The position numbers and the translations under genes were made by a program. Positions 25,434-64,000 of a stretch of DNA of 64,000 nucleotides are shown piece after piece. The number at the start of each line of letters is the position of its first letter. Position 1 is the first letter of the stretch. The notes beneath the pieces are model-generated. The model saw only the letters and a program-made list of their open reading frames with translations. It ran no database searches and had not been told where the DNA came from. The DNA lies in assembly GCA_977862235.1 (NCBI GenBank), contig OZ374564.1:1302001-1366000 (forward strand), given 5' to 3'. The DNA is from Dudresnaya verticillata. Taxonomy: Eukaryota.

Positions 25434-25487
25434 TAGAAGTCGCAGAAGACCCTATCACCTCTTGCGTCGACGCGATCGAGGCCAAGA

Positions 25488-36700: not shown

Positions 36701-36798
36701 TCGCGGCTCAGCGCGGGCACACCCGACGTGGCATCGACGCCCGTCACCGACGGACGCCCGGGAGCCCGCTGGCCAATCCCGGGCGCCGTCTTGGCCAC
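33726..36798 (-). pseudogene. Long antisense extra ORF of the Gypsy element, unknown function
   Basis: ORFs 35182-36798 and 33726-35045 can be joined by one stop and one frameshift (~35100); the N-terminal part recurs at 37712 and 39361. Confidence 0.6.
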
Positions 36799-36948
36799 CC
36801 CACAGCGTGCGCGTTGTAACGGTCGCGACCGAGGCGTTCGCGCTTGAGGGGGGTGTAGTGCCAGGGGGTTCCCCCTTTTTTCGCTTTCAAGCGGGTTGAT
36901 ATTCCGCGTCTACCGACGGGCGACCGCCAACGGCGCGCTCAACCCACC

Positions 36949-37695: not shown

Positions 37696-37700
37696 CCACC

Positions 37701-38464: not shown

Positions 38465-39805
38465 TGTGGCATAGACGTCAGGTCGAACTGACGTCTAGCT
38501 GCGCTGGTCTCGTAGTCGCACCCAGACCCGTCGAAGGGTGGTAGCGGTGGTGGTAGAGCGGTGGTGTCGGCCGCGCGCGCCGTCGACGGTCGCGGATCAA
38601 CGGCGTCGAAGCCTGAGCGCGCACGGGGCGTACCGTACGCGGGCGGCAGCGGCCGGATCCCTGCGTCCCCGTCGTGGGGCGGCACGAAGCCGCCGGTGGG
38701 GAAAGGAAAAGGAAAGCCTAGGCGGCTAGGGAAAGAGGGAAGCCGTAGGGCGAAGGACTGGGAAAGAAACCCAAAGCAGAAAGGGGCAAGCCTGGCGTAG
38801 GTTGGCTTGCCTGGATTACTGAAGCCCAGAGGGGCGACTACTATATATACTACAGGGCCTGCGGCGGCACCAACCCGGGAGGTGCGCCGGCGCACCCCAA
38901 CAAGCGTCGACGCGTACGGGTAACGGCAACCCGGGGGCGCGCGTGGGCCAAACGGTCCACACGTACTCAACGGCTCGACGCCGGAGTGCGCGCGCGCGTG
39001 TCACGCACTCAACGGCTCTGCGCCGGAGTGCATGCGCACAGTGCGCGGGACAGCAGGGCGTTCGACTGCCGCTTACACTAGACGGTGCTGCACACTACAA
39101 AACAATGAACGTAGAAATTACATGGGAGTTTCAGTGTCACACGCGTACGCATGCACACACGGGCGCCACTGCGCACTTCCTTACAGTTTAGCGGGGCTTC
39201 GGCGCCACCGGCTGACAGCGTGCGCACAGCAGTGCACACGTGGCGCAACTGGTCTTACAGCTGCGCGTGCGTGGCACAGCTGGTCTTACAGCTATGCCAC
39301 ACAACCCCCCCTCAAGCGCGAACGCCTCGGTCGCGACCGTTACGACGCTCACGCTGTGGGGTGGCCAAGACGGCGCCCGGGATTGGCCAGCGGGCCCCCG
39401 GGTGTCCGTCGGTGACGGGCGTCGATGCCACGTCGGGTGTGCCCGTGCTGAGCCGCGACGGACTGTTTAGGGAGCCGCCTCTGCGGCTCCGAGGGGGGGT
39501 AGTCTAGTCATCGCTCACCATGACCACCAACACTCCCTCCCCCACGCGTACAGCTGCCTGTCGACCAGTGCCATACGCTCCAAGCTTTCGACGCTCTCAA
39601 CTTCCTCCCCCATCGCCAGCGTCGACGCGGCGATGGAGTCACGCGAACCGATCGCGGACGGCGCCCCCGCCGAGGGGGCGCCGGTTACCAAGCCCACCTC
39701 CTCGACTGAGTCAGTCGTAGGGGGTGCGCCTGCCGAGCCGGTGCCAAGGGCGCCGGCTGGCGGGGAGGCGCGGCCTTCGACGGCCGCGCCAACTGCAGAG
39801 CGACC
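38465..39805 (-). mobile_element. Gypsy copy C: 3' LTR (38465-39301), PPT and 3' internal region
   Basis: 837-bp LTR matching LTR A; minus-strand GAGGGGGGGTTG before it; 39305-39805 matches the reverse complement of 36352-36853. Confidence 0.92.
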
Positions 39806-40239
39806 TTGGCTAACGGACCATTCCTTCGAAACTTATGGCGGTTTGCGTGAATTTACCCAAAATATTTCCAGGTATTCTGAATTTCAATTTCCTTGCGTCG
39901 ATTTGGCCCGGGCGGCCCACTCCGCGGTCCGCACTGGGCCAAATTGGAAATTGCCGGCCCGCAGCATGCCCCTCACCGCGCGCGCTGCATGCGCGCCGCA
40001 TCGCCCATCTGGCCCGCCCCGCGCGTGCTCGGCGCCGCCTGCAGACTACCCCGTTACCAATTTTCGGCTTTCTGGTGCAACGGGTGCACTGTGCTGTGCG
40101 CGTCTGTGCACAAATCCGCACGCGACCGCATACAGACTGCCTCGTCACCCGCCCCCCCCCGCCCCGCCCCGCGACGCACAACGCCTTGGACAAAACCTGC
40201 TGTCGCAGTTGCCCACCCGCGTGCACACCGTGGATCCCG
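39806..40239 (+). repeat. Left terminal inverted repeat (outer ~115 bp missing)
   Basis: Reverse complement of 62018-62449 with about ten differences by eye. Confidence 0.92.
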
Positions 40240-40271
40240 ATTCTCAACTAACCCCTTTACTGTTCTTGCTA

Positions 40272-40351
40272 CTTACACATCTGAACCAGGGTCTTCCACC
40301 GTCCACTCCTCGAGGAGTGGACGGTGGAAGACCCTGGTTCAGATGTGTAAG
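40272..40351. repeat. Perfect 80-bp palindrome with no spacer
   Basis: CTTACACATCTGAACCAGGGTCTTCCACCGTCCACTCCTC|GAGGAGTGGACGGTGGAAGACCCTGGTTCAGATGTGTAAG. Confidence 0.97.
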
Positions 40352-43542: not shown

Positions 43543-46500
43543 TCACTCCACCAGTTTGAGGATGGCCAATTTCCCCTCTTCGCGCTGGGATACGCTGGTT
43601 GTGCGTAGCAGTACACCCAGCGTCCTCCCGTCCGCGCCCACTTGCACCGTCATGATGTCCTCCTCGAAACTGGCCATCACTTGCTCCACCCCGTCTATGA
43701 CGCGCACAAGGTCGTTCCGGCAAGCCTCGAAGCGCGCCCGACCGAGCATGGCGTCACCTGCAGCAGGCACTTCTGTTGGCGGCAAAAACTGCCGGCAAAC
43801 GTCTTCCCAGTCTTGCCGCTCCTCGTTCTCGACCTCGGGGTGAATGCACTTTGTCGCCTCGACGTCCCAGACCCAAACCACCCCGTTCTTTGACTGCGCC
43901 ACGACACGCATCCCGTCATTGCTTACCGCCACGCGCTCGATCAGATGCAAGCTCCCCTTCATGTGACGCCCTACCAGGTCCCAGTCTGAATCAACGTCCC
44001 ATACGCGGATCACACCACGTCGCGTTCCTGACACGACTCGGCACCCATCAGCACTAAATGCGACTGCCGAGACCGATCGCGTGTGTCCCAGGAGACGCTC
44101 CCCTACCGTCTGTCCCGTATCGGCGTCCCACACTTGAACTCCGCCTGAATTCTCCCCGGACACCACGCGGGTGCCGTCAGTGCTAACGCCAATGCACGAC
44201 ATCCCGCCCAAGTAACTAGTGAAAGGTCCTTCGCCACTCTGCTGCGATTCCACGTCCCATATGCGAACCGTCCCGGCCGCTGCCGTCGCCACACGAGTAC
44301 CTTCAACGTTAATAGACACGCTCTCTACCCAGCCAGCATGTCCCGTTGAAAGCACCGTCACCAGCTCTCCTGTTTCAGCATCTGTCACTTTGACGGTACG
44401 ATTGCGCGCGCCTGATGCCACTCGCGGACCGCAGGTACCGTTGCCGCTAACTGCAACTGTTGTTACGCCGTCCCTGTGCAAGGTTAGGTACTTCGCCTTC
44501 AGTTTTTCTGCTTTCGTGTCCCACGCACGTACCTCATTTCGAAGAGTGCCGGAAACCACTCGAGTGCAGTCCGGACTAACCGCGACGGCCGCCACCCAAA
44601 AGTGACCTTCTGGGGCCAGTTCCGCTGCTTGCCCTCGTTCAACATCAAAGACTTGGAGTCTGCTATCAGGCGACCGCGACAACACATACGCTCCATCGCT
44701 GTTCTTTGTGAGAGCATCCACCCAGTCGCCAACGCCCGTCAGAGGATCCCCAGTTTCTGCATCCCAAACTCGAGCAGTCCCGCCATGTGTAATCGACACC
44801 ACACGGATGCCGTCGGCCGTTGCCACGACGTTGTTCACTTCATCCCAGTGTCCAAGGAACGCATCACGTACCATTTCCTCAGACTCTGTTCTCCACATAC
44901 GTACTGACCGATCGCTAAAACCCATCACGACAATATCTCCATCTACAGATATAGCCCCAACACGTGCTTCGACTATCTCATGCTGACCTTCTCCAGCTGA
45001 ACTCTCCTCGTCGACGATCCCTCCACCTTCACCATGACGCTGTGTACTCCCAACTTCTGCCCCTAACGCTGTTTCATTTTCGAGCTGCAGCTTCACAATC
45101 TTGCTTTTCCCACTTTCATGCTTCGCGACGAAGAGGGCGCCGTCGCTGTTCGACCCACAACTTGTCACTCCTTGTCCTTCGATGAAACGAACATCATAAA
45201 CTACATATGGAACTTGAAATGTCTCCAACAGAGAGTCATGTGCTCCCTTCAAACACGATGTTACTGCCCGGATCCACGGTCTACGTGCAGACTTCTCCAC
45301 TCGATGTATGAAATCTCCTACCCAGTTTGGTTTCGATTTCGTTGCTAGCAGTCTTGCATATAACTGAAACTAACTGCCCGTTGTGTTCCCCACCCCATAT
45401 AGGAGACTCATTCGCACAATCTTGGACAAAGCCTTTAGAACATCAGCCTTCTTCGCAGACTCGTCCACAGGCGCCGGGTGGGAACCTAGGCTACTGGCAG
45501 TTTCAATCTCACGCCCATCTTGTCCCCATTTCTTCAAATAAGACTCAACATCACTCTCGAGAAGCAAAACAGTGTTCATCGCCATCATCTTGAATAGCCA
45601 TTGGGGGCTGCTAAGCACATTGTACACATCCGGGCCTCTCCCTGCAGCGTGAATAATTCTACACATGTTTCGCACGATGTAGCCGTCATCCTCGACAAAC
45701 GCCGGCCAGCACTCCCCATCATCAATACTTTCCGGTAACTCTGACCTGTACGCTTCCAGTATCTGGTCGAACCACTTCAACAATTCCCCATTTCCTTTTT
45801 CTTCGGCTCCTTTTGCTTCAGACTGTGTGAAGTCGTGTGTAAGGTCGTGAAGCCGGAGCCCAAAACACAGCTTACCTCCAACATGTCGATACTCAGCATC
45901 GGCTACCCCCACCCGTACCATTGCTTCTATCTTCTTCTTTGTCTCCACATCATCCGCAGTGCCCCAAATATGGCGCAGGGCTGGCACAGGAACCCAGTCC
46001 TGTTTCTGAATCACACACAACCGCCGATGCAATTCATGGTAGGTCGGCTGTGATCGGGCTTTCCCTCCCTCACGCGGCTTGTCCAGAATATCCAAGGAAA
46101 CAAGCAGCGCTACACCATACCCTGGATAATTGTCTTTCGTCACCTGCTCTACTAATTCATGGCGTCTGAAAGACTCAAGATATACATTCCATGCAGCCCT
46201 CTTATTGCCGCCCATCGCGTCTCTGTCCGACTTAACTCCCGTTCCACACAGACTCAAAGCAAAAGGTAAGCCGTCGCAGATCTTCAGGATTGCATTAATC
46301 GCTTCAGAACATTCAGCATCTTGCACCTCTGCTTCGACGTCAGCCTCCTCAACCCCCGCTACGCGCAGTAAAATATTCCTCGACTCTGGACCCAACGGAT
46401 CTCGCGGATTGAATGTCACCGTGTCTCCTAGACTTCGAGCCTGTCATGTACAGCATTCTCGTTATGTGTTGTGTAGCACTGCAGTAAACGTGAGTGATGC

Positions 46501-46640
46501 AAGCGCTCGAGGTCTCCTGGTCTACAAGTCAGAACGCAGATGCCCCAGGGTATTGTTGTACAATAATGGAGCTCTCCCATTCGCTGCTGATTCTGAGACT
46601 CCCACCCGGAAGTGCGGGTGGTGCAGGGATCCCGAGTCAC
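43543..46640 (-). pseudogene. NB-ARC (STAND) + WD40 protein, N-terminally degenerate and frameshifted
   Basis: ICDGLPFAL (GLPL-like) and LHDL (MHD-like) in 45370-46419; many GH...WD repeats in 43543-45300; no intact P-loop seen. Confidence 0.82.
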
Positions 46641-47233
46641 TCATCACTGTGATTCCAATTCAAGGGTATGGAACCCGGCACTCAGATGATGCTTTCGCTA
46701 TAGCTATGTATTACAATACATCGGTAATACTAGTACAAGGTCCCAATCGTGGTGAACCGTGCACGGTGCACATGGACAGCGCATAATGTCACCAGTCGTT
46801 CTGATTCCACTTCACAAGCAGAATACTTGCCACAAATCGGTGACCGACTGCCTGCAGCCCACACATGTTCCGAAAGCATACCGGGGGACTACACAATATT
46901 GTAATTAGGGGACGAAGAAATGCCTCCTTTGACTGGGTCAGACGACTAACGATAGGTAGACCGTTGCTCACTCACTGGTGATTCCGTTTCGCATATGCAC
47001 ACAGAACAGCATAGGAGGTTATCTGGCGAGGTTTCAGCACGTGACACCACTCCGGTGCCCACTGCGTTCTCTTCCCGATATTCTTGTTCCACCGCGCTGC
47101 GCTGACCGCCGCCAAAGGCCGCTTTTGACCTCCCACCCTTTCTTTTCTCACGATCGTACGACGCGTACTCAAAAGCGCTATTGACGGCACTGATCCCAGC
47201 GAGACGAGGCCCTTACTGCTATCGTGGTACAAA

Positions 47234-50200
47234 ATGCCTCGCACAAGAGAACGTCGCACTGCTTTGCGTCAAAGGCCTGTCACTGCGGACCGACATGCCG
47301 TCTCCGTGAAGGGAGGGAACAATTCCTCGGCCAAGACTATCGATAAGGCGACGGCGGAGACGGCCGCGGAAGAACCCATTCGCAAACAGGGGCGGAAGCG
47401 CGCCCGCAGTAACCAGCCCTGGCACGCAAATCATGTCAGCGTCGAAGAAAGTAGTGCTGTTGCTGAACGGAGAGGAGGTGGGTACGGCTGATCCAATGAC
47501 TCCGGCGTCTCCGGAAGAGGCAGACAGTACAGGTTCATTCAAAGTTAAGATGCATGGAACGTGGTTAAGAGAGGTGCAGCGGAAGAAGGAGACATGGATA
47601 GTCATCTATAATCTCCGTATTCGGAATGGACATGGGGACAAGAGGTACATGTATAAGTATCCCGGTATAAAGTCTCCCCCCACCACTCTAGCTGGTCTAA
47701 ATGTGGGTATTCATGTATGGGACAGGTAGCAAGTCCGCACTGTGAAGCCGCAACCTACAAGCGGTGCTGGAGAACCCGGCGTGGCGACCGGGGAAGCTTG
47801 CCCTCGGATAGAAATGGAGCAACCGGGTGAGAGGCACACTGTTCGTGCCCGGACGTCAACTAGGCGGTCAGGCCGTAGGGGGGTCGGGGACTTGCTCATA
47901 AGCGGACGGTGACGAAAAAAATCACCCGTACCGGTCAGTCTGATCCCAGCGCTCAGCCACACCAAGAAGGTAATGACCGCACTACCCGCCCGTATGTGCC
48001 CGCGGCCGTACCAATTAGAGGGCAAAGAAAACACGGAAGCTGGGTTATCAAAACTGGAAAGTAATGACGCGGCGCCGCGTGGGAGCGCTCCAAAACCAGC
48101 CGAGGCTGAACGGGAGAAAGGAGATTCCGGGAACGGCGCACAAGAAGACAATACTCCCGTCGACACTACAGCAGAAGAATGTGCGGGAGGTCGTGATCAC
48201 TAGTCTGAAGAAGAGCATCCTGACGTCGAGACTGCAGACGATGGGGAGGATGCTGATTCCGACACGCCGGAATGGCACCCCTCCGAAGGGGAGGAGATAA
48301 CACTAGAAGGGCGTGGAGACGGCCAGGCTACTGCTAGGACGAGCCGGAAGAGGAATTATAGACATGATGCTCGTCCGAAAGGAACCCCATCGGGGCATTT
48401 GATGGCTGCGAAGAGGAGAAAGGTAGTGGAGGTGATGGAGATGCAGGATATCTCAAACATTTTCTGCTGCCAAACGAAACAATGCTTCGGAACCATCGAG
48501 TCAGTCTACATCAGGACTGAGTCACGCAAAATGATGGACAAGAATCGCGCGGAAAGGAAGCGATACCTCACGGGACTACTGGAACCCAACTCCAACATGT
48601 ACTTCTTCAGCGGCCGGCCGGTTTGTTACTCATTTCTGGACAAGGCTTTCGGTTTCTCTAGAGACCTGCAGTCGGCAGTGAAAGGGACAAACAAGAGCCG
48701 CGAAAGGAAAGGGAGGGGGCTGATAGTTGGTGGTACTTCTACGGAACAGATGGAGGTGATAACTTCGTTCTTGGAGCGCCTCGCAGAAGTCTCTGTTGAT
48801 TCGAAACCAGACAAGGCTGAAATCCACCTCCCCTTCTATGAGAAGCTCGCAGTCTATAACACGTTTGTGACTGAGCACCGCACTCTGTACCCTAACAGAG
48901 CAACACCATCACAGAGCTACTTTTATAGTATCTGGCTCCGCAGCTGTCCGCACATTAAGGTCAGGCGAACTCACCGGTTTTCAAAATGCTCCGAGTGCGA
49001 GGAGATCAAAGATCTTCTCGCAAAAGCGGCAACGGATCTAGCGGGAACCGAAGCGCTTCGCGAGCGGCGGGCAAGGCACGTGAGAATGGTCATGCAGGAG
49101 CGAACAGAATATCGCAAGAAGTGTGAGATGGCTTCGATGTATCCGCAGAACTATTGCTCACTCATCATCGACGGTGCTGACCAGTCCGCATTTGGACTGC
49201 CACACTTCCACATCAAGGTGAAGGACACACGCGGACACGGAATGAAGGCCAAAGTAATCGGCGTTCTAGAGCATGGCCAAGTCCCACATCTAAACCTTTT
49301 CACGATGACTGCAGAGTTCGAAACAGGCGCAAACCATGTCATCGAAGCTTTGCATCGCGTATTGATGGCACGCAGAGAGAGGATGCCACTGAAGGGTACG
49401 TTGTTCCTCCAGGTCGACAACTGTACTAGGGAGAATAAGAACAGGTTTATGTTCGGCTACTTGGAGTATCTCGTTGCTATGGGTGTATTTCCGGAAGTGC
49501 ATGCGTCGTTTCTCCCCATCGGTCACACGCATGCCGATATCGATCAAGTTTTCAGCTGCACTTCGAAGAGATTACGCGTTCGAGACGCCATTATCATGGA
49601 CGACCTCATCCACGAACTACGGCAATCATACACTCCTCAACCGCGTGTCACGGAGATGTTGCAGATTATTAATTTCTCCGGGTTGTGCAAAGAGACCAGA
49701 TGCCTCGGGCGTACCGAGCCCATTTCAGAATATCGGTACTTTAGGTTCAGTGCGGAAGGAGCTAAAGACACAGACGCCGGTACGTTCAAGACTCTCTGCG
49801 AAGTGAAGAGGGGCTGCAAAGACTCTTGGAAACCGTTACATACGCGAGATGGCCAGGGGGATTTTTGTTATTTCCCCCCAACCTGCACCGGACTCCACCG
49901 ACTCCCTGTCGAGCACCGCCAGATGAACACGAAGTAACCAAGCGTCTACGATCCGCCGAGACCAGAATCAGCAATCACAGTAAGCTACAGAAGCTGTTGG
50001 CACTTTGTGATAGAGTTTACGAGGACCGTGAAGACCCATTCCACTGGGCATTGGCGGATGTGTTTGAGTTGGAAGGGGCTTACAAACCGGATGGGAGCGG
50101 CCCTAGCGCACCCTCGGAATCGGGGTCAGACGCTGAGAATGTAGTGGAACAGGACCTCACTTACACAAAGAACAGCTTTGTAGCCGTACTAGGCGACGAC

Positions 50201-50565
50201 TGTACCGAAGGATGCCCGTTCTGGCTTGGGCAGGTGATGAATTGGGAGACGGATGGGGGGGCAAGGTTACCAATTTGCAAGTAGAGTGGTACCAGAGAAG
50301 GAGTACTCGAGGGAATACTTTCACCGGGCGTTATCAGAAGGCGAGAATAACCGATGCAAATGGACATGTCAAACCGTGGAGCGATACGGTCCCGGGGAAG
50401 TCGGTTTTAGTGGAGTTCGCGCGTTTAACCAACTCTGGAATACCCGTCAGGGTGCAGCGAAAGATCAGGGAAGCCCTAGAGATGCGAAAGAGAGGAGACG
50501 ATCCGGAAATTAGTACTTCGGTAGAGGCGGGGGGACCAGGAGCAAATGGCATGGAAAGCAAATAG
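47234..50565 (+). pseudogene. Putative DDE/D-type transposase (DUF7869-like), disrupted
   Basis: 47433, 47973 and 48399 share a frame, broken by stops at ~47727, ~47910 and ~48201. Motifs FSKCSECE, SLIIDGADQ, LQVDNCTRENKN, FLPIGHTHADIDQ; frameshifts near 49860 and 50255. Confidence 0.82.
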
Positions 50566-53500
50566 CTTGGGGTGAGAGGGAGGCGAAGCAGGAATAAAGT
50601 TGTGTCGCTAGTGGCAAAATGGGGTCAAGATTCTGGGCGAGAATTGGAAAAGGGTTAGAGTGTATGCATGTAATGCCACGGAACAGAGTGTGCAGGCTAG
50701 CCTCATGACGCAGCTGCGTCATGAGGCAGCATCTTTGCTGGGTAAACCGGATTGCTTGTACAATCACAGTCGTGTTGTAAGCAACCTTAATGCCTGCAGC
50801 ACGCCAAATAAGTGAGAAAAAAAGAACCACTGTTCTCTCTTATGCACTGATACAGAATGCAATTTCGGCTTTCTATCAACCACACGGGTTGTGATTAACG
50901 TGTCCGACCTGCCAAATCGTACCTTGCACACTTTGGGTGCGATCACACCGCGGCACCCGCGGGTGCCCCCAAGTGAAGGGATGGTTCTACCCAATACCTC
51001 AAGATCTGGCGGCGTGGAGGGTCTCAGGGGCTCTGGGAACCGCGCTCCCGCCATGGTTGTTGCTCGTCCGCAGGTGCAGAATCCGACACCAATGTTAGCA
51101 GGAGACGGGACGGGCTACATGACTTATGAGCGTGTCCGCGTGATAGTTCAGATGCTTTGTGATCTCGGGTCCTGTTCTGTCCTTTTGTCTGGGGATGAAC
51201 TAAGGCTTGCAGTCGAAGCAGGCACGGACATGACCGAAACTGTTTTATATGCCAATGGGAAGACCTTGCAGGGGCTCGCGTTTGCGGTACATTTGCTGGT
51301 TTTAGGTCAACATTGACTCAGAGTTTGATCTTGAGCACATTGCTCTGGTGGAGAAGAAGTCAAGGACAATCGCGAGTGTTCTCATTCGTATTAATCCGCA
51401 TGCAGATTGATAGCATGTGCACATTGACGCTCAGGTCCATCCATTCATCACTACTGGGCTGGCGAGCAGCACGTTTGGTGTCCGCAATTCACATCTGCAA
51501 CGATTTTTGAACCTTATCGAAGAGGAGACTTGCTGCGCTTGATCGGAGTGCATTTATATCTAGGCATTCCGGACGTATGATGTACCCTGGAAGCCGCCGG
51601 TCTCTTGTAAAGGTATGAAGCTATACCATTACCTAATTTAAAAGTAACCTTGTTTTGGTTTACCAGGACCGCGACAAGCTCAATCTTGCTGTCTGTCGGT
51701 AGGCATTAAAGACAGATCCTCCTAATACAACTAGCATGCCAACCACAGAAAAGTAAACAAAGTCAGACGGTAGGACCTCTAAGGCCCCAACAGAGTGCTC
51801 CACAGAGTAGACAACATCAATCCCTACGGCAGCAACCTGATCAAGTTGCTGCCGTCGGGAGTCGATTGTGACTTTCACTGCCATACAGTGCTGCGACCGC
51901 TACCTGTCTCAGATCTGCAACACGATTGCCTCCGGACATGAATCTTGTCCAAGGGGACGAAAGTTCTAGCAGCGGTGTATACGAAAATGACCGTTCCATT
52001 TAGTCCACAATATTGCGACGGGCAGGGCTTCCAGCGTCCACGAACAGTTTGGAAACAAGAGCAATCTGCCCAGTGTCTAACCGCATGAGGATAGGTTGCT
52101 CTGTGAACCCATGTTTCTTCAGGGTTACATTCAGACCATCCTCTCGAGTGCCAATAAGAGAGCTGCAATTCATTGCACGTAGCATCCTGAGGGGTGTTTC
52201 CGATCCCGTTCGAAGCCTCCTCTGGTCGTTACCGTTCGAAAGAGACGTTGACAACATGCACACAGGCAGCTGGCCACAAACGCCTGTACCGATACCAAAA
52301 ATGTTTTCAGATAAAGGCCCAACAGCTGAGCAAACCATGCCAAGGACCATATCGCGTATAGCAGGCATATTCTTGAGGGGTTCGTACAAGTCGATTACGT
52401 TGATTTCCTGCTGCAGCAGAAGAGTGTTCCAGGAGCTGTAGACAAACACATTACAGCTCTTCACTACGAAAACAGGACCTACGGCATTATTGTGCATAGC
52501 AATGTCCAGAACTGAGCCTTTCCGACATTCAATAGCATTGCGTGTACCAGCATGTTTTCTTTGTCCTCGAGGACAGATCTAAAACCACCAAACGCACATC
52601 TACGTCATCGTACTTGAGCCATAGTTCACATCCCATTGTCACACGCACCGGAGGATCATACAATTGCCTCCCTGCAGTGTATCAGCGGCGACTTCGGAAA
52701 CCACAATTTGTTAGGGTAATGACCGGTGCTACGTCTCGCTCCTTGCAAGGAAGCCGTGCACCTTGTGGCCGCTAGCCCCGTATGACAGCCAGCCGCGGTC
52801 GACCTGCCCATTCGGAACGACGTCACATCCCTGCAATGCGATGCCCCTTTCGAAACCCTCTCCATCCACCCGCACGACGTAAGCACAAACACTCGTGCCC
52901 TTCTGCCTGCGGATCAATGGTAGCTTGTTCAGCCTGGAATTCCGACAAGAACTTCCCAAATATGGCAGTGCCAGTTCCGAAGCTTACTGCCTTCACAAAG
53001 CTACCGGTCTCTCCATACCGGCACACGACGACAACAAGCTCCCGATGGATAGAGGCGAGAGCACAGAGTCTCTCTCCGACATGATTCTTCCACAGGAGTT
53101 CCCCTCCTCCCCGCGTGTTGTGCCCGTAAAGAGACCCAAGCGTGGACAATCCGACAAACAGCGACTTACCTGGGACCTCTTAGAAGGCGCCGTCAAAGAG
53201 ATGCACCCGCACTTCCTCCCGTGCCCACACATCAGCGTCACCACCATCTACCCACAAGCGACCGCCTGGGGCCGATCTTAAGACTGTCGTGGCAAGCCGC
53301 CAGGTGAGTACGCGGTTGCCGGTTTCCAGCTCTGCTTGCAAAACGCCTATACTATCACTAGTCCAGTTCACGTTGTTGTACGTTACAGCCAGCCCCGTCC
53401 ATGCGTGCACAAGAACGTTGGGATCATCTTGGGTGCATGGCCGCACAACGAATTGGACATCATCTGAGGAGACATTGCATCCTCGGCGCGAGCACGCGCG

Positions 53501-54059
53501 CGCGTCTACGACATACTTCACAACGCACGAACAAGACTGCGAGGTTCATTGCGCGGTTGCCAACCTAAACAGCCCCATGCACGGTTGCAAACTAGGCATG
53601 CTTCGTCTTGACGAGAATTGTTACGCGAGACGAGCAGGACCCGCGGGGGAGGCGTCGGAGTCTGTGGCGTCTCGAGTGCAGACAGACGTAATGCAGACGC
53701 AGTCTGGGTGGATGTGCTCGCAGTTGACAGCACGACGGATAGGGACGCGGGATGCGCAGGCTACTGCGGTGGCGCATACGTCAGCAAACACATCACAGTG
53801 CGCGACGGGGGCACTTCCGCGAGCGCTTCGCAGTGCGGAGCATTTCCGCAGACGCGGGCTGGGTGAATGGGCTCGCAGTTGACAGCAGGATGGATAGGGA
53901 CCGCTGGAGGTACCGTTACGCGACACAGTGTGTCGCCTCGAGCTTGAAAAGAGAGGAGGTGGTGATGGTAGGAGACGGCGGTGACCACGAGGACGGTGCA
54001 TGCGGTGAGGTTGCGGTGCGTGGAGACATGCTCCGCAGCAGGCGGGTGACCAGCAACCG

Positions 54060-54362
54060 GATAGCTAATTCAGTGAGACTTCCGCCGGAGCTATCGGCGC
54101 ATATGGATTTTTTTATAGCTCCCTGTCGCCGACATATTCGAAAAGCTATTTCTTAGGTTTCCCATTTCGGCGACTATGGGAGCTATGTAGCTAACGGAAT
54201 GCCGCGAGTGTAAATATCTATTTTCTTAGGTATTTTGATTTCGGGAAACACGGGAGCTATATAGCTCCCGCGGAGGAGGAAATCAAAAAGCTAAGAAAAT
54301 AGATATTAGATTTCTCCGGCGCCATTAGCTATTGGCTGATATTCATATTCGTTTATAGCTTT
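54060..54362. promoter_or_regulatory. AGCT-rich non-coding island with two imperfect hairpins
   Basis: 11 AGCT in ~300 bp; hairpins 54115-54186 and 54213-54307 (centre CGGGAGCTATATAGCTCCCG). Function unknown. Confidence 0.6.
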
Positions 54363-55374
54363 TCACTTTGGTCCTCCTGCGTTTGCTACTTTTCCCGAGA
54401 CGCCCAGCCGCACCGCTCCGAGCCCGACATCATCTGAAAACGCACTGCCACTCAAGAAAACGCACACCACACAACACCAGCGCCCTTGACAAGGGCAGCA
54501 CACGACTGGAACCCTTTTCACAGCGTAGGTCGAGCCCTCGCCCCCGCACCGTCCCCACTGCTTCCGCCCTTCGCATCCGGCGTCGTGCTCGGTTTAGCGC
54601 TCACTGCAGATGATGGCTGCGTGGGCGGCGACTTTGTTCCGCTTGGAGGGTCCGTCGGCGTCGGTGCTTTTGATGTTTGTCGTGTGTAGCCGCCAGGGAT
54701 TTTCGGCCGTGCGCGGCCGTGCGCAGCCATAGCCGAAAGAGACGATGGCAATCTGCATAGGACGCTTGTCAGCTGCATACACTACGAGCTGTGATAGCCC
54801 AACGCCTGGATATGAGGGAGGCCCCGCAGCCCTCCGCATGGAACGATACGAGATGGGAGCGCATAAATCCATGGCGGGCTGGCCACCGACGATGCGGGTC
54901 TGGGCGGCGCCCGGGGGGCGACGTCTGGCAGAAAGACGGGGCAGTCTGCATAGTTGCGCGCAAGCATGTGTTCTTTGCGCGTGCCGCGAAGGGAGAGACA
55001 AGCGTTGCTGCTGTGATGGAAAGCATGCGCTTGCTCAAGAAAACAACTGGCATCGAAAACTTTGAGAAGGCGACCAGTGGGCATGATGCTGAAAGTAGAG
55101 GAAAGCGAGAGTTGCTACTGCGAATGGTTGCAGACGATGTTTTACGCGTTGTTGATGAGGTGAAAGACTTGCAGAAGGTAGCTTCATAGATGATGAGAAT
55201 CACCCAATGCACACGGAGGGCATGCAGCCGTTTCATGTTTCACGGCGTTTGGTCGCGACGAGCGTGCATGGATGCCATAGTTCCTTCCAGCTGGAAATGT
55301 GCAGTGGACCGTCCGCCGCCCTCGACTGGCAGAATGTACATCCGGTATAGCCCAAAAATAGATGGAGCAGACTT

Positions 55375-58305
55375 TCATGGCTCTCTATCACAACCCTCCA
55401 TCATGTGAAGATCCCATGCGAAGAATGCGTTTAAGTCTCGCAGCAGTGCTGGCGGTTCCTCCGGACCCTTAAAAGTGTACTTATACGGCCTCTCCGCGAA
55501 CTCATCGCGAACTTTGAAGGAAAATACAGCCACGAGATGCTCTCCCTCCTTGCCGAGCTCCCGCAACCCGTGCTGGTGTATTTCTGTCTTCAGTCCGTGG
55601 GCGTCGTTACCCGGTTGCAATACTGCCTTCCCAACCTTATCTGGACCACACAGCAGCCAAACTGCGTCACCACCTTTGAGTTGCGGTCGATCGCATGACA
55701 GCGGTTTCTCCCTAGGCTTTCCTGTACGTTTCCCAGACTGTTGCTTACCTGGGGACATCATTAGAGTCTGTGATTCCCTTTCAGACTGATCAGTACGTAC
55801 CCTCTTCGTGTCCGGCTGTTTGTCTATCTGTTTTGCCGAACGCTTCTGTGCTTGGACCCCTGCATCTTGAGAAGACCCGTTCTGCTTCTCCTCTGCCATG
55901 CGCTGCAGGCGTGCACGAGCCAGTCTGTATGTTTCCGGGTTTCTTTCGACGAGGTAACACTCTCTGTCTGTCCGAAGGCAGGCAATGCCTGTAGTCATTG
56001 TCCCCGCATGAGAGTCTAGGACCGAGCCGCCTTCAGGGCAGAAGGTTATGATGATCTCAGTAAGTGCATCAGGATTTTTCTCCTCCGTCAGAACTAGTGC
56101 CCTGCTAGTCCCTGGCTTCATGAGCTTATCTCTGGGTACGGGAACAGAGGTCATCACAGCAAACTTTCGTCGCTCCTTACACGAGATGAAGTGGTACGGG
56201 CTGGAGAGGTCTGGAGAGAAAGAGTTCTTGGATGTACCCTTGCGCCTTCCGAAGGCTGCTGCCTCAGCCCCATTCTGCAGTCCCTTCTTGCGACTTATCT
56301 GGACAGTAGTTGTGTCTTTGCAGAGTAAGAAAGGGTACTGCGGACTATCGAAATTGTTGTCGGTAAGTGCCTTTTGAAACAACGGGAATTTCAAGAAGCT
56401 GCAGAACAGAAACACCCAACCACCCTCCTTCACAACACGTCCACAAAACTCGCAAAGGCGCTTGATGTCTTCTTCACTGAAATGGTTTGCGTATGCAGTT
56501 CCAGCATTTGACATTCCCTTCAGGGTACCATACGGAGGGTCAGCAAGCACGAGGTCAAAGAGAGGACTGCATTCATTCCTGATTGATTGGTCATATTCCT
56601 CCCACTTCATCTGATATGTTCGTATCCTGCATTTGGAAAGCGGGTCCTTCTCCTCCACATCAGAACCGGTATCCAGTCCCTTCGACTTGCGTGTTGAAGA
56701 AACAGAACGACTACCCGGTCCAATACACTCGTTCGGGATGTCATTGTTACCAGCTAATGCGCCTGTGTCGTTGTCGTCTGTAGGATCCAGGACCGATTGC
56801 GTATTCTGCCTCTGCGTGTCAGTTACAGTATCCTTAACGGCTTCCGACTGCTTTTGGCCACCAAGGGCCCCCTTAGAGTCTTTTTCTTTCCCCCCTTGAG
56901 GTTTTCCATCAACTTCAGAGCTCGTCTTATCAATCTCAGAAGCTGAAACTATTGGCTTCTCAGTTTCTCCTATGTCTGGAGATGTATCTTTCCCAGAATC
57001 AGTTTCTGCTTGGAACTGGTGCTTGAATTTCTTTTCCTTACCTGGAGCTTGTTGCGGGCATTCCCTTCGATAAGCGGCTATCAAGGGTTTGAGCACATCG
57101 TGGTCATTTCCGAAGTTTGCACGCACCTCGTGGTCCAGCTTCGTTGAGTGAAGGAGGTTCTGGCGAATGACGTTCATACCTTCAGGCCAACTCTGGCTCT
57201 CGATAAGGCGTTCGAATTTCCGTGCTTCCTTCATTGCTGCTTTCGCCCTTCCAAATTGTTCCAGAGTCTGAAAGCTGGTGACTGACCGGAAACTCTGAAG
57301 TCGATGTACTTCGCGTAGTCGGTACGAAGTTGAAATCTGTATTTCTACGCCATCCTCCAGTTTGTTCCCATTCATGAAGGCGATTGCAGACTTCAGTGAT
57401 GAAATGTGGATGAACTTTCTGTAGACTCGGCAGTCAACCTTCCTCATTGCTCCGTCCTTGTCGAGTGTTGTCCCTTCCTTGTCTCCCGTCATCTTTGCAG
57501 CTAGATCCGGTCTCTCGTCATTTGTAATTTGTCCAATTGCGTGAATTACTCTCGTATCCAACCGCATAACTGTCTGAGCAGTCTGTTTAATGGTGTTGTT
57601 CCGATATAACTTCGAACCGTCATACGCCTCCACAATTTTTGGGGCATTTGGTCGTTTCCCAGTCTTGGCCTGCAACCTCTCCGCCTCCTCCCGCAGACCG
57701 CGGACCAGGTCAAAAAATGTAGTCTCGATAAAGTATCCCTGGTCGTGTTTCTCATTCTGATGTCGTGCCAGCTGCCGGAGCTCATGGACGTTTTGCCCAC
57801 TCTTCAAAATCGTTACAGGCCATGCGAAAGACTGCCAGACTGTTGGGAACTCCTCCATTAACTCCAAAATAACGCAATGTCTATGCAAGCCGTCAACAAT
57901 GCCGTACCATTTGGAGCGATTGTTTGCCTTCTCCAAAGCCTCCTCCTCCGTGTACTCCTTCCCTTCCTCTTTCATATTCTTGAAATACGCAACGACGTGA
58001 CCCCGCAGAGACCCTGTCATTTCGATGACAATTGGAGAGTCAGACCCGGCAACGTACCCAATAGTCCCTTCACCGCCTTTCTTCTCTGATGAGTGCAGAT
58101 GAACGCGAGCTTTGAGGCGTTCCACTCCGGAGCGCACCACGGGTCTTATTGCTGTTAGCGGGAAGCACGCCCTGGGGTCAATTCTCATATTCACGGAACC
58201 CTCCATAACGTCAGAAAACAATGCCCTCCTCATGCTTGCAGAAGAGCAATTTTGGTCCGCTTCAGATTGTGTAACAGCACCCTTTCCTGAACGTTTCTTG
58301 CCCAT
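55375..58305 (-). CDS. ParB/Srx-like domain fused to a beta-class DNA amino-methyltransferase (probably N6-adenine) and a C-terminal transposase-shared domain
   Basis: Intact ORF (open to 58410; first ATG at 58305). YGIVDGLHRH; DLVLADPPYG (motif IV) precedes EEKNPDAL and GGSVLDSHAGTMTTGIAC..RECYLVE (motif I), the beta order. Confidence 0.88.
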   Translation of the reverse strand: MGKKRSGKGAVTQSEADQNCSSASMRRALFSDVMEGSVNMRIDPRACFPLTAIRPVVRSGVERLKARVHLHSSEKKGGEGTIGYVAGSDSPIVIEMTGSLRGHVVAYFKNMKEEGKEYTEEEALEKANNRSKWYGIVDGLHRHCVILELMEEFPTVWQSFAWPVTILKSGQNVHELRQLARHQNEKHDQGYFIETTFFDLVRGLREEAERLQAKTGKRPNAPKIVEAYDGSKLYRNNTIKQTAQTVMRLDTRVIHAIGQITNDERPDLAAKMTGDKEGTTLDKDGAMRKVDCRVYRKFIHISSLKSAIAFMNGNKLEDGVEIQISTSYRLREVHRLQSFRSVTSFQTLEQFGRAKAAMKEARKFERLIESQSWPEGMNVIRQNLLHSTKLDHEVRANFGNDHDVLKPLIAAYRRECPQQAPGKEKKFKHQFQAETDSGKDTSPDIGETEKPIVSASEIDKTSSEVDGKPQGGKEKDSKGALGGQKQSEAVKDTVTDTQRQNTQSVLDPTDDNDTGALAGNNDIPNECIGPGSRSVSSTRKSKGLDTGSDVEEKDPLSKCRIRTYQMKWEEYDQSIRNECSPLFDLVLADPPYGTLKGMSNAGTAYANHFSEEDIKRLCEFCGRVVKEGGWVFLFCSFLKFPLFQKALTDNNFDSPQYPFLLCKDTTTVQISRKKGLQNGAEAAAFGRRKGTSKNSFSPDLSSPYHFISCKERRKFAVMTSVPVPRDKLMKPGTSRALVLTEEKNPDALTEIIITFCPEGGSVLDSHAGTMTTGIACLRTDRECYLVERNPETYRLARARLQRMAEEKQNGSSQDAGVQAQKRSAKQIDKQPDTKRVRTDQSERESQTLMMSPGKQQSGKRTGKPREKPLSCDRPQLKGGDAVWLLCGPDKVGKAVLQPGNDAHGLKTEIHQHGLRELGKEGEHLVAVFSFKVRDEFAERPYKYTFKGPEEPPALLRDLNAFFAWDLHMMEGCDREP

Positions 58306-60053
58306 CCAGCCAAAAATGTAATTCAGCACTTTTGAACAAACGGTCGCCGTACGTCTTTCCAACTGGTTGCCGAAGTTGTTTCCAACTGGTTGTGTTAAGC
58401 TGATGAGCACGGGATAAGCGTTGCGGTTTCCACGAAGAGCACTTCGTGTTTACAACAATATGTCCGTAGTCAGGTCAGTGGTCACTGCATTGAAAGACAA
58501 TATATATCATGCCGGTTTCCAGCTTTAACCTGGAAACGAAGTTTGTCCGCATGACTAACAGCCTCACGTACGGTTTTAACTTTGCCGGAAAGATAGTTTG
58601 AGCCCTGTACCACTGGTGGTGCCCTGATACATTCCGCGAGATTACATGAAGCTACAAATCACTGCAGGGTTCTATTGGTCGTCGGTAAATATATCGACGT
58701 ATTGTGCCGTAGGGGTGTTCGCCCTAAGTTCGTACTTTCTCAGAAAATCTTTGGAATTCAGTTCTAACCATCCAACCGTACAGTGATTCCGATTCACAGC
58801 TGCCCTACTAGGGTATCTAAACGATGCTCAAGGCGGGTAAGAAATGGGCATACGAAATAGTTCCACAACGTGGAGGGGAAATTGGAAGTTCGTGTGCCTG
58901 CGTAGGCACACTCCCTTGGACTGGGGGTGATGTGGACGATTCGCAAACGTACAGTCATTCCGATTGTACCAACATGAAGGTGTTCCTCAGAAACGATAGG
59001 AATAACCTCGGATTTTCGAATCGGCAAGAGGTTACTGTCCGCCCACACAGAGTCGTTTAACATTGACATTTCCTGAAACCTGCGCCTCCACCCTGCAGAT
59101 ATGGTCATCATAAGACCACTGCAGCACCGAAACAAACTGATGATCACAATCTGCCATCGGATGCCACGACAAACGTAAGTATGCGTGTTACCCAATGATG
59201 CAAGTAATATCAAGGTCAGGGAAATGATTAATACCATACGTGAGACCATAATACAGCCTGTACCAGTGTGTCCAAGTGATCCCAGTAAATACGTTCCAGA
59301 ATTGTGCACAGGTCAGCATGCCCTCGTTCTAGCAATACAGAAAAGGCCTATTCTGCGGAGGTTTACACAGTCTGATCTGCGGTTCCACCTAATATCTGGG
59401 CGGTGTATGTGAACTATCCAGCAAGTTGAGGCTGCATTTTTGCAGGGTCCTCATACTGCTGCCGGTATAAGTGCTTCGGTACAGTACGGTCATTCTGATT
59501 ACCGGAATTTGAACGTGTCCAATCGAAGATGTATCCCTATTTGTATGCAGAGAATGCCTAAGCCTCGTACACAGCCAAAACCATTAGCTACAAGTGTTAC
59601 TTTCAGTTTAAAAGCGCGCAATCGTTGCATTTCACAGACCTCCTCGACGGTACTGAGGAACAGAAATACGGCTGTACACACAGAGAAGAGGATTTCTTGC
59701 CGAAGTGTAGTCATTCCTATTACTATCGACATTCTCATTGACCTCCCGGTGTTGCCGGACGACATACAGTCAGGTTTCTGCGCATTTCATGGCCTCATGC
59801 GCTGTGAATTGAGGCGCCGATTGGCAGAGCAGCAGCGCCGCCTTAACGGTGACTCTTTGCAATTTTCGGAGCGCATAATGCGATCCTTGGAGGTGAAGGA
59901 TGAAGAAAGAGTCATGGAACAGAACCGTGCTCGGGAGTTTGAGGTCGTTATGGGTCAATACGATCATGACCAGAACATGCTCACAGTGGTATACCGTGGG
60001 GGAATGAAGAAGCTTGATTAGGTATCGGGGGATGCTTTCTCCGGATCCGAAGC

Positions 60054-61247
60054 TCATGAAATCGATGCCGTCTTGGTCGAGGCTATTCGCCTGGCAAGCG
60101 AGCCAGTACGGGAGATGGAGCGAATGTGCCGCCTTCTCCTGACTTGGCATTTTGCCAAAACTAACGCAGAAGGGACTGTGGAGGTAAAGGAGGCAAGGGT
60201 GGCCCGTGCGGAGCATGAAGTGCGCGTCATGTATAAGAAAGCTTCGTCGTGCAAGTACTTGGAGACGCGCGTCGGTCTTGGCTACGTGTGCTTATGGCCG
60301 TACCTTTCGTCGTCGGTAATGTTAGAAACGAAAAGACGTCGACGGTTGTATTCTTGACGAGCGACGTAATACGAATTACGCTCCTGGCGGCTTTTGAATT
60401 TGCCATGTCCCCGCGAGAGTACTTCCAGCACAATAGCTGTGTCGGGATTTGACATCAGCTTCTTTTCCTCTCTCTGCTGAATATCAACTAGGAAGGCCTT
60501 GAAACCTCCAACTCGTTCCGTTTGTCCGTAGTTCTTTGCATTTGCCTGTCCATGAACGCGTTCCATAAAGGTAGGAAAAACAGAACGGTCGAATAGTCTG
60601 ATCCCCAGTGCCTCAAGGCCGGTGAACCGTTTGCCTTCGGAGATGCAGTTGTCAATTAATGCGAGTAAGTTGGACTCACCAATGCGGCGGACCATATCTT
60701 TGCCAGTTTCCTCTGGTCTGCGCAGGGCATTGAAATCCAGACACGACAGATCGTGGCTCTTCCCAAGCAGTTCATCACTGACTTCTCGTGCAGGCTCCCT
60801 AGGTACGAAGTCAGACATCTTCCCCTTACGTACGAGGATGTGCGTTTGGACTCCCACAGGGGGTAGTACATCAGCGGGGGATTTCTGCATCAGGACCTTG
60901 GATCGCTATTGTTCCTCTGGGCTATATACCGTGTACTTTTTGTACCTAAATACAAGATTGGATTCATCATGCCTGCCACGTCGAATGTTCAGACAGGCGA
61001 AGTTTAACCCACTATCCTCTCGAAACCGGGACCAGCAAATTGATTCCTTCTTCGCCACGTATTCGGGGCAGTTAATGCTGCACATGTTGATATCGACGCT
61101 TGTTTCAATACATGTGCGAGCCCGAGCCCTGTATTGTGGAAGGGGAGTATGCGCCGGCAAAATAGAGTTATCAATAGTGGTATCAGAACGACCTTTCTGG
61201 GTTCTCGTCTTCATTTCAGCAACCTCGGCTGATGGTATCCCTCCCAA
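60054..61247 (-). pseudogene. Unknown reading frame interrupted by single stops
   Basis: ORFs 60906-61247, 60282-60890 and 60054-60254 are in one frame; no family recognised. Confidence 0.35.
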
Positions 61248-62017
61248 CTGTATTCAGACCCGTTCAGGCATTACGAAACGAGCTGGGCACAATTATGCTT
61301 TAAGACCCACACTGAGACGCATGGCACAGGCAGTAAACAACCGAGGTGCATTGGCAATTGCCGCATGTATTATATCCCTTTCATGAAGAGGCTATATACG
61401 CCTTGCAGGCAGCACCATACCGGGACCAGGAACCCGCAATGGCAGCTGACGAGTCAATGTGAAGTGGGTCAACAAATGTCGCCAACAGCGGAAACATGTC
61501 CCTTTCATGAGAACGTCCTGCTCATTTAACACCGTAGATTGTCAGTGCTTCAGTTATTGAGTACACTGAATGTATATTAACCCTGACGCGTCTGGGGAGC
61601 AGGGTCGTGGGAGTTTGGACGCTATTCTCAATCGCAATGGTGGTGGACTGGAAGCGATCCCCCTGAAGGTTGAATGAGCTTACCAAACGCCGCATTTGTT
61701 TTCCCCAATGGAGCTTGCGAAGTTGCATCAATGGATGGGGCTACGGACATGGTTGGAACGGGGAACCTTTGGGGTGTCGACAACGCAATCGGTCGCGCGC
61801 GTGGTTAACCGGGAAACAGCTGCAGGCTTATACATTTTATTATCATTACTTAACGAACTACGTAGTGTTGGGTGCGTGTCATGGAATGGCCATACTTGTG
61901 TCTGCGAGTTGTCATGACATCGGCATGTGGCGTCCCATCGTAGAGAAATACGGGCGGGCGGGTCGTGCAGCGCGGTCGGGGAGCGACGGGCAGGGCGCGC
62001 TGACGAGGTGACGGCAG

Positions 62018-62564
62018 CGGGATCCACGGTGTGCACGCGGGTGGGCAACCGCGACAGAAGGTTTTGTCCAAGGAGTTGTGCGTCGCGGGGCGGGGCGGGG
62101 GGGCGGGTGACGAGGCAGTCTGTATGCGGTCGCGTGCGGATTTGTGCACAGACGCGCACAGCACAGTGCACCCGTTGCACCAGAAAGCCGAAAACTGGTG
62201 ACGGGGTAGTCTGCAGGCGGCGCCGAGCACGCGCGGGGCGGGCCAGATGGGCGATGCGGCGCGCATGCAGCGCGCGCGGCGAGGGGCATGCTGCGGGCCG
62301 GCAATTTCCAATTTGGCCCAGTGCGGACCGCGGAGTGGGCCGCCCGGGCCAAATCGACGCAAGGAAATTGAAATTGAGAATACCTGGAAATATTTTGGGT
62401 AAATTCACGCAAACCGCCATAACTTTCGAAGGAATGGTCCGTTAGCCAATCGGATTTGACCACCGTACTCAGCGGACGCTCCCCTTTCCAACGATACCAG
62501 AAAATAGCTATTCAACTCCAGTCTGTTTAGAAAGTCGTATTCTGAAATCGCTCAAATGCGTGTT
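62018..62564 (-). repeat. Right terminal inverted repeat including the putative true end (..AAATGCGTGTT)
   Basis: Matches the left repeat up to 62449; the extra ~115 bp resembles 4790-4909; Gypsy pol resumes at ~62566. Confidence 0.85.
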
Positions 62565-62565
62565 A

Positions 62566-64000
62566 GGGGCGATATGAGCTTCGCTCTGAGCGTCTCATAT
62601 GCCTCGAGCGCGTCGGCGCTTGGATTGTCGAAATCCACATCCGCGTCTTTGCGGGTCATGTTCGTCAGAAGACGTGAGATCTTCGCAAAGTTGCGCAAGA
62701 AGCGGCGATAGACATAGCACGCTCCGAGGAACGACCTCACCTTCGTCAGGGAGGTCGGGAACTGCGCATCGCGGAAAGCGTCGCTGCTTGTCTGCGCCAT
62801 GCGTAGCTTCCCCAGTTCGATGATGTGGCCTAGATAGCCAACGAGTGACTGAAAGAAGTGGCACTTCTTCAGTTTCAGGGATACTCCTCCCTTGTGCAAC
62901 AGAGTCAGCACTTGGTATAGATGACCAACGTGCTCCGCGATCGACCGCTAGAAAATGATAACATCGTCTAGATATATCAGGAAACACTACCATCGGACGC
63001 CGCTGAGGATGATGTCCAGTGCGCGCTGGAAAGTCGCGGGGGCGTTCTTCAGCCCGAAAGGCATTCGCAAGTAGCGAAACGTCCCTAAGAATGACGTGAA
63101 TGTGTTGTTATCCCTGTCAGCCTCTGCGACAGGGATTTGCCAGTACCCCGTGTTGCAGTCCAACGTCGAGAAGACGGCTGCGTCGCCTAGACTGTCGATG
63201 CAGTCGTCCATCCTCGGTAGAGGGTACGCATCACTTAGCGTTTTCGTGTTGAGACGTCGATAGTCCACGCAAAACCTAAGTATGCCGTCCTTCTTGGGCA
63301 CCAGGACTACTGGACTACTGGTGATGCCCATTCCGAGGTGGCGGGCACGAAGCATGTTATCCACCTCGTCTTGCACCAGCTTGCGCATGGCAGGGCCCTG
63401 TCGGTAGGGCATTAACCGTATGGGGCGAGTGCCCCGTTCCACATCGATGTGGTGTCGGGTGACGGCAATAGTGCCCAGCCTCCCGTCCCACATGGACTGA
63501 TGCTTCCTGAGCATGGAGAGGACCTCCTTGCGGGTGACCTCGTCTTCGGTAGACGAGAGATCGACCTGCGCCTCCCAATCCTTGACGGACGGGTTGGCCT
63601 TCGCTGCGGCGGTAGCTGTGCCCTGCAGCGGCTGGGCGTCGGTGCCCTTCGCTGTCGACGGCGAGGTGGATGGTTCGACGGCATCCTGGTTGACCGGGGG
63701 CCTCTGCCACCGTGGTGGCAGGGTGGTGATATTCATCACCCGCCCGAACTCCTCCGCGACTTTGCGATCTGGAGGTATCAGCGCAACCGGGTTCCTAACC
63801 GCGTAGCCGACAATGGTACTCTTAGGCAGGGTCCGAGGCTTGTTGGTGAAGTTCCCGACGATGACCCCGAAAGGCCGCATCGACTCGACGTCGTGCACCC
63901 CGTTGGTAAGTCTCACGCCGTAGCGGAACTGCAACGAGGGTTTGGGTTGGGTGTGGATCAGCCCACTTGCTCCTGACGTCACGGAGACGAGCCTTTGGGA
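62566..64000 (-). pseudogene. pol: Pol fragment (RT region) of Gypsy copy C
   Basis: Near-identical to the reverse complement of ~28785-30224; stop at 62987; small deletion/frameshift near 63340; YLDD present. Confidence 0.93.

Follow-up and report, generated by a model that had tools for sequence, protein, structure and literature searches.

Two recent papers on algae propose that ParB/methylase proteins carried by transposons bind and modify the very elements that encode them; the text available from the papers gives no assay. In Ectocarpus, the element Sola1-1_Ec32 is reported to carry a gene for a 1104-residue protein with ParB-like and N4/N6 methylase parts on the strand opposite the transposase, and self-modification was proposed for it (PMC12477816). 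Among red-algal Plavaka elements, PAG2 is described as a PF01555 domain joined to a SET domain and PAG3 as a ParB domain joined to a 2OG-oxygenase (2OG, 2-oxoglutarate) beside inverted repeats, and both move among transposons (bioRxiv 10.1101/2025.02.11.637652). The bdelloid rotifer enzyme N4CMT is a host gene with an SPPY motif and a chromodomain, and was shown to write N4-methylcytosine (4mC) on transposons (PMC8885841). Here we analyse a gene from Dudresnaya verticillata that belongs to the kind already described in algae, where its self-marking is a proposal. It lies in 64,000 nt of contig OZ374564.1 (positions 1,302,001 to 1,366,000, forward strand; assembly GCA_977862235.1), the whole of which is called the window below and numbered from its first letter.

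The gene is probably an accessory gene of a neighbouring putative DNA transposon of the DUF7869 type. The encoded protein is predicted to attach to the DNA of its element by a ParB-like region and to write N6-methyladenine (6mA) there. This reading is preferred because the protein family goes with DUF7869 proteins, because the trees of the two agree, and because the adjacent DUF7869 gene carries a homologous barrel domain. The features on which it rests are as follows.

55375 to 58305, minus strand: open reading frame (ORF) of 976 residues with a ParB-like region, a disordered linker, a beta-class amino-methyltransferase, a further linker and an SH3-like barrel (ORF calling, Pfam, AlphaFold model)
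56986 to 58227, minus strand: conserved N-terminal region, residues 27–440, with a ParB/Srx-like core at about residues 28–188 (R54, DGLHR, N184) and a helical part behind it (family conservation, fold matches)
55891 to 56643, minus strand: predicted beta-class amino-methyltransferase, residues 555–805, with DPPY at 56530–56541 and motif I at 55990–56019 (PF01555, Foldseek, VIA-align)
55378 to 55689, minus strand: C-terminal SH3-like beta-barrel of about 98 residues, no Pfam family (model with a predicted local distance difference test score, pLDDT, of 93.5; generic fold matches)
47433 to 50565, plus strand: putative DDD transposase of the DUF7869 family, whose N-terminal linker holds three stops and whose frame shifts twice, at the G runs near 49860 and 50255 (PF25273, E 2.3e-46)
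47433 to 47729, plus strand: N-terminal part of the DUF7869 frame, homologous to the methyltransferase barrel (BLASTP E 1e-11; profile E 1.8e-22)

The minus-strand frame of the methylase runs without interruption from 55375 to 58449, 1024 codons from stop to stop, and its first ATG, at 58305, gives the 976-residue product. A preliminary description of the locus had reported an uninterrupted ORF of about 980 residues, and this is borne out, with the start given there (58410) lying upstream of the ATG. The three motifs it had named are all found: VDGLHR at residue 137, DPPY at residues 589–592 and LDSHAGTMTT at residues 763–772. In the AlphaFold model, which was built from a 90-row alignment and has a mean pLDDT of 82.4, there are three ordered parts, and residues 448–549 and 816–872 are disordered.

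The enzyme domain matches PF01555 (N6_N4_Mtase) with 43 bits and an E value of 6.6e-11, the cut-off being 26.7 bits. The top Foldseek match for residues 555–805 is CcrM (E 3.7e-11), and in VIA-align the same domain gives Z scores of 23.8 for CcrM (root-mean-square deviation, rmsd, 2.8 over 221), 22.9 for BceJIV, 19.1 for PvuII and 18.9 for rotifer N4CMT. In addition, motif IV (DPPY, residue 589) lies N-terminal to motif I (residue 763), which is the beta-class order. As modelled, residues 555–805 are a predicted beta-class amino-methyltransferase. Enzymes that write 6mA on DNA rank at the top both by sequence profile and by fold. The link from DPPY to 6mA drawn in the preliminary description agrees with the published account, although the PF01555 domain is reported to have switched between 6mA and 4mC repeatedly (PMC8885841). 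The phage affinity claimed there is also found, since the enzyme domain matches phrog_67 with an E value of 6e-26.

The N-terminal region resembles ParB by fold. VIA-align gives 5k5d (Pnob8-like ParB) a Z score of 8.7 over residues 28–359 (rmsd 4.3, 220 aligned); within residues 28–188 it gives PadC 7.2 (rmsd 2.6, 97 aligned), KorB 5.8, sulfiredoxin 5.5 and free serine kinase 5.2. These five ParB/Srx-type entries agree on the region with Z scores of 5.2 to 8.7, each alone being middling, and the modelled region appears by fold to have a ParB/Srx core. No ParB profile in Pfam, NCBIfam or PHROGs matches the 976-residue protein; weak DndB and ParB-like profile matches occur in its relatives. The fusion of a ParB-like region to a beta-class methyltransferase that the preliminary description had proposed is therefore upheld by PF01555, the CcrM fold and the ParB/Srx fold matches. 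Of the two profiles it had named as a check, N6_N4_Mtase matches and ParB does not, its likeness being seen by fold. A GxxR arginine patch is the clamp motif of the ParB CTPase. The protein has DGLHR, whose R142 is shared by 23 of the 52 full-length family members defined below. GxHR and DPP[YF] are mostly retained jointly (12/16 versus 7/35), which is not counted as co-evolution because kin share states.

The family is large, and no member looked up bears a name. A search of representatives at 50% identity gave 904 proteins at E ≤1e-3 and 118 at 1e-30, of which the best 150 of the 904 were listed; the full-length set consists of 52 non-redundant proteins of at least 750 residues (57 less five from the same 90% clusters), and the family tree is a quick tree. 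Motif IV reads DPP[YF] in 17 of the 52 and is altered in 35, across several clades. The five-member clade holding the 976-residue protein (SH-aLRT 99) has DPPY in all five, and the whole clade retains DPPY, E742, D764 and GT-x-TT. The protein itself keeps 60 of 64 family-conserved columns, which places it at rank 11 of 52. The C-terminal module varies in the family: two members (P0021 and P0027) have Cys-rich, zinc-finger-like tails instead of the barrel. No SET domain was found in the 976-residue ORF, in 90 flanking frames or in 153 scanned relatives. A metagenome scan gave one full-length relative among 56 loci (L004, on a 3-kb contig), which is frameshifted and has an altered motif IV, the rest having the enzyme domain only. 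In a tree with 40 DPP[YF] enzymes of prokaryote-like loci, outgroups that were chosen by motif pattern, the family separates as a clade of its own. Compared with those 40 enzymes, the sister of the family is the PF01555-bearing long ORF of loci L025 and L027 (FastTree support 0.913 and 0.996). These two ORFs (L025 738–5837 and L027 1980–6509) are near-identical and GC-rich, with a DPPY-type PF01555 domain and without the ParB region. A SET-like tail was seen in them by eye and was not confirmed by Pfam and PDB searches; they are possibly PAG2-type genes.

The association with DUF7869 was examined by an indirect test, in which a methylase and a DUF7869 protein count as a pair if they come from the same source and from contigs of exactly the same size, rather than from the DNA itself. 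Of the methylase clusters, 26 were looked up; contigs of at least 6 kb are present in 14 of them, and 10 of these 14 pair with a DUF7869 protein; the null has a mean of 0.064 and a maximum of 2 in 20,000 shifts. The paired genes of these relatives probably share contigs, of which six of the ten measure 7.1–8.9 kb and four 10.3–17.3 kb. Tree distances of the two genes correlate across the ten pairs (Mantel r 0.73, p 2e-4). The closeness of the window's methylase to P0010 and P0014 in one tree is mirrored in the other, where its two DUF7869 proteins group with the partners of these methylases, P0167 and P0170. With the pairing, the congruent trees and the barrel common to both genes, the earlier suggestion that the gene belongs to a mobile element gains support.

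The DUF7869 gene lies 4.8 kb from the methyltransferase gene on the opposite strand. We take DUF7869 to be a Sola3-type (Sola-like) transposase, an assignment based on its three acidic motifs and a label that no tool confirmed. These motifs are kept in 87, 106 and 118 of the 120 DUF7869 relatives listed (the best 120 of 159) and in both copies of the window. The protein has no PDB profile match, and the available text of the papers naming Sola3 gives no motifs or termini. A second DUF7869 gene occupies positions 467–3458; in the core it shares about 50% identity with the first, and it has a frameshift near 1440. No methylase remnant was found beside it within the window.

The barrel is shared by the two adjacent genes. 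The last 98 residues of the methylase are modelled as an SH3-like barrel with a pLDDT of 93.5, for which no Pfam match and no Foldseek match under E 0.001 was obtained; the fold matches are generic only (SH3/Tudor/KOW/PWWP, Z up to 4.9). It may be comparable to the Tnp1/DUF8039 domains of plant En/Spm elements, a likeness that was not confirmed. The barrel is present in 18 of the 52 full-length methylases and in 11 of the 120 listed DUF7869 relatives, and a search for longer barrel proteins returned only three, all already in the barrel profile. Among the ten methylase–DUF7869 pairs, it is found on the methylase in eight (one marginal), on the transposase in one, on neither in one and on both in none. 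The locus of the window differs from all ten in having the barrel on both proteins. From the ten pairs, one copy per element seems enough, and this makes it less likely that the two proteins are linked through their barrels.

Between the two genes lie the following features.

50700 to 50727, strand not applicable: perfect 28-nt palindrome, 135 nt past the DUF7869 stop (palindrome scan)
51660 to 53600, minus strand: incomplete copy of the host gene EMC1, broken by several stops and frame changes (EMC1_C, E 9.6e-6)
54050 to 54360, strand not applicable: cluster of AGCT-rich inverted repeats in tandem, some 1 kb beyond the 3' end of the methylase gene, with a perfect 20-nt palindrome at 54251–54270 (fold z -6.5)
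54745 to 55189, plus strand: possible small gene, read by eye and without a family, in which the frame seems to change at a G6 run

The order is thus DUF7869 (plus strand), 28-nt palindrome, broken EMC1 fragment, AGCT-rich repeat cluster, possible small gene and methylase (minus strand). The other DUF7869 gene of the window (467–3458) has a 27-nt palindrome 130 nt past its stop, and these post-stop palindromes are two of the three with arms of at least 11 nt in the 64 kb. The folding of the AGCT-rich cluster (z -6.5) is equalled by none of 100 shuffles, and one 500-nt bin holds 14 of the 80 AGCTA/TAGCT words of the window. A 14-nt AGCT pattern was rejected as a window-wide motif, with 8 matches at three mismatches versus 5.5 expected. 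Rfam gave no match in 46000–62500. The span from 47.4 to 58.3 kb measures 10.9 kb, which falls to 8.5 kb once the EMC1 piece is taken out. The EMC1 copy is likely captured cargo or an intervening pseudogene, and we infer that the whole span is one element that took up the EMC1 fragment.

The preliminary description had set an intact methylase among neighbours in decay. The EMC1 copy is plainly disrupted, but the decay of the DUF7869 gene is less evident. All three of its stops lie within a 158-codon linker (P ~0.003 if evenly spread), many DUF7869 relatives have a shorter form of this linker, and both frameshifts lie at G runs and may be read errors. Its core keeps 121 of 126 conserved columns, versus 121–124 in six intact relatives. 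Consequently, the element may be only recently dead, or its lesions may partly be read errors. Under uniform decay, the chance that the methylase ORF would be free of lesions is 0.037 if all five lesions are counted and 0.18 if only the two frameshifts are. That the ORF is intact speaks only weakly for selection on this copy, and private changes do not point that way: at columns invariant in five close relatives, 23/184 are changed here versus 13/174 per sister (Fisher p 0.06), an excess that may be a mild hint of drift. The earlier argument from intactness to selection is not sustained.

Several observations weigh against the reading as an accessory gene of the DUF7869 element. The ParB matches are middling (Z at most 8.7) and without a Pfam match, the broken EMC1 copy sits between the two genes, and searches for terminal inverted repeats (TIRs) and target-site duplications gave nothing above shuffles in the regions searched. 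The ends of the element may be lost or lie elsewhere. The co-location of the relatives' genes is deduced from the sizes of contigs, 4 of the 14 long-contig clusters are unpaired among the 120 DUF7869 relatives listed, and one chance pairing occurs among 26 short-contig entries (0.26 expected). The two DUF7869 proteins of the window are sisters with a weak support of 0.705 (r 0.74 versus 0.69), so that the tree alone cannot pick the partner among them. In the methylase itself, V145 stands in place of a conserved Ala, and its branch is 0.66 long versus 0.39 and 0.44 for its sisters. Motif I, which the preliminary description regarded as a variant, mostly follows the family norm (G768 in 46/52, T771 in 39/52), but H766 occupies its usual aromatic position, where His occurs in 2 of 52 members and Tyr or Phe in 45.

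These last points bear on a different explanation, according to which the accessory protein is mainly a non-catalytic DNA binder or scaffold, on the element or on chromatin, with a weak or dead methyltransferase and a copy that is perhaps newly drifting. The alteration of motif IV in 35 of 52 members over several clades speaks for it, as do the four of ten transposase-paired methylases with an altered motif IV (P0022, P0023, P0031 and P0045), the rare H766 with V145, and the somewhat raised private changes. On the other hand, all five clade members retain their catalytic motifs, and GT[LMF]TT is present in prokaryotic DPPY enzymes too, these having been picked by that pattern. We regard this explanation as unlikely. 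That the enzyme is active for the transposon and writes 4mC, or acts on single-stranded DNA or RNA, is improbable: its motif reads DPPY and not SPPY, and the 6mA DNA enzymes rank highest by profile and fold, even though the PF01555 domain is reported to have evolved either specificity repeatedly (PMC8885841) and N4C enzymes such as PvuII and N4CMT share the fold.

The absence of lesions from 2.9 kb of methylase, versus five in the 3.1-kb DUF7869 frame (P 0.037), together with the broken EMC1 copy between them, could also mean that the host kept the gene after the death of the transposon for a host function like that of rotifer N4CMT. Such domestication is slightly more improbable still, as the transposase core is conserved to the degree of intact relatives, the stops cluster in the linker, the G-run frameshifts may be read errors, and private changes are more and not fewer than in the sisters. 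Finally, the stretch could be contaminating or integrated phage or bacterial DNA, to which the phage methyltransferase family match would point, and likewise the N-terminal region, whose closest Atlas clusters (0.91) are phage proteins. We consider this extremely improbable. Viral contigs yielded no full-length relative and only three loci with the enzyme domain alone, the neighbours in the window are eukaryotic (EMC1, a kinase and a WD40 protein), the GC content at the gene resembles that of the surrounding sequence, the barrel is common to the adjacent DUF7869 gene, and the family stands as a clade separate from the 40 prokaryote-like enzymes. The long frames, poor in introns, together with the literature suggest that the host is a red seaweed.

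Under the preferred reading as an accessory gene of the DUF7869 element, the ParB-like region would bind the element's own DNA, possibly at the palindromes, the DPPY enzyme domain would write 6mA on the element, and the barrel may contact DNA or chromatin. Such a mark might benefit the element by labelling it as self or by shielding it from silencing. Since DPP[YF] has been lost in some two thirds of the family, whose ORFs nevertheless stay long, DNA binding is likely the steadier role and methylation an addition kept in the five-member DPPY clade. A bolder version, which we find rather doubtful, would be that an entire lineage of DUF7869 elements co-evolved with a phage-derived ParB clamp-methylase that loads at the element's palindromes as ParB does at parS, spreads along the element and writes 6mA on it, with the mobile barrel tying it to chromatin and most lineages keeping the clamp as a pseudo-enzyme.

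Other parts of the window were also inspected. Two convergent frames at 59413–60354 (plus strand) and 60285–61386 (minus strand) show a coding-like GC pattern with internal stops in each and could be further cargo; neither has a family in Pfam, NCBIfam or PHROGs. The minus-strand gene at 43543–46443 combines a winged-helix-like part with WD40 repeats, as in STAND-type proteins, and has an in-frame stop at 45370. Long unbroken host frames on the minus strand are a protein kinase at 12639–13844 and, at 19742–20875, a frame that has no Pfam match and in which a metallo-beta-lactamase-like motif is seen by eye. Three tandem units of about 860 nt at 14284–16551 encode an RWP-RK-like repeat by eye, with no Pfam match. 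Copies of a sub-kilobase repeat at 5341–6390 and 9862–10535 are about 84% alike, carry internal inverted arms and resemble miniature inverted-repeat transposable elements. GC-rich sequence (up to 70%, on a background of 50% GC) like that of long terminal repeat (LTR) retrotransposons, with gag/pol by eye, occupies 24550–40350 and 62018–64000; the LTR-like copy at the end of the window is about 95% alike and on the other strand. A perfect 80-nt palindrome lies at 40272–40351.

Compared with the systems described so far, the locus is closest by description to Sola1-1_Ec32, in that ParB-like and N4/N6 methylase parts are joined in one protein of about 1000 residues (1104 there, 976 here) encoded opposite a transposase. 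That element, according to its report, is a brown-algal Sola1 element of 21.5 kb with 282-bp TIRs, whereas here the partner is DUF7869, no TIR was found and the barrel is common to the transposase; the word ParB is absent from five text supplements of that report (PMC12477816). With the Bostrychia genes PAG2 and PAG3, as far as their preprint describes them, the locus shares a transposon-borne PF01555 methylase (PAG2), a ParB-like domain adjoining inverted repeats (PAG3) and movement among transposon families. It differs from them in that ParB and methylase form one protein, no SET domain was found, and the nearby transposase-like gene is DUF7869, PAG2 being described with a Plavaka transposase, PAG1 and PAG3 within 15 kb.

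The enzyme domain is like CcrM, M.BceJIV, M1.HpyAVI and the phage methylases of ParB-terminase loci, as described in PMC4738411, in fold, in the order of motif IV before motif I and in DPPY. Unlike these bacterial and phage beta-class enzymes, with which identity is about 20%, it is set in a protein with a 410-residue N-terminal region, long disordered linkers and a C-terminal barrel, in a eukaryotic transposon setting. Like bdelloid N4CMT as reported (PMC8885841), it is a PF01555 enzyme of prokaryotic type that occurs in a eukaryote and carries a small barrel domain at its C-terminus; unlike N4CMT, it has DPPY and a ParB-like region and is likely the transposon's own gene. It also resembles the DIRS and LTR retrotransposons that carry DAM, a prokaryote-like adenine methylase, but those are retroelements with another enzyme family, and PF01555 and Plavaka are absent from the main text describing them (bioRxiv 10.64898/2026.05.21.726589). 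The available text of PMC12730594, PMC12695648, PMC4455052, PMC5751038 and an Auxenochlorella preprint contains nothing on a ParB-methylase family. A literature search for "DUF7869" returned 0 papers, and searches found neither the DUF7869 co-divergence, nor the motif loss in 35 of 52, nor the shared barrel, some of which Repbase reports and the Bostrychia supplements may contain.

To what is described for the algal genes, the analysis adds the association with DUF7869 elements, a catalytic motif that is often lost, a barrel common to methylase and transposase, and candidate binding sites. The locus and its relatives offer a testable set, comprising a DPPY-intact enzyme, its sister enzymes, natural dead-motif controls and candidate palindromic sites. 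If the enzyme is active, a DNA transposon would be writing a prokaryotic mark on itself, as a mirror of rotifer N4CMT; and if the load-and-spread clamp proposal holds, a eukaryotic transposon would be running a bacterial-style self-marking system.

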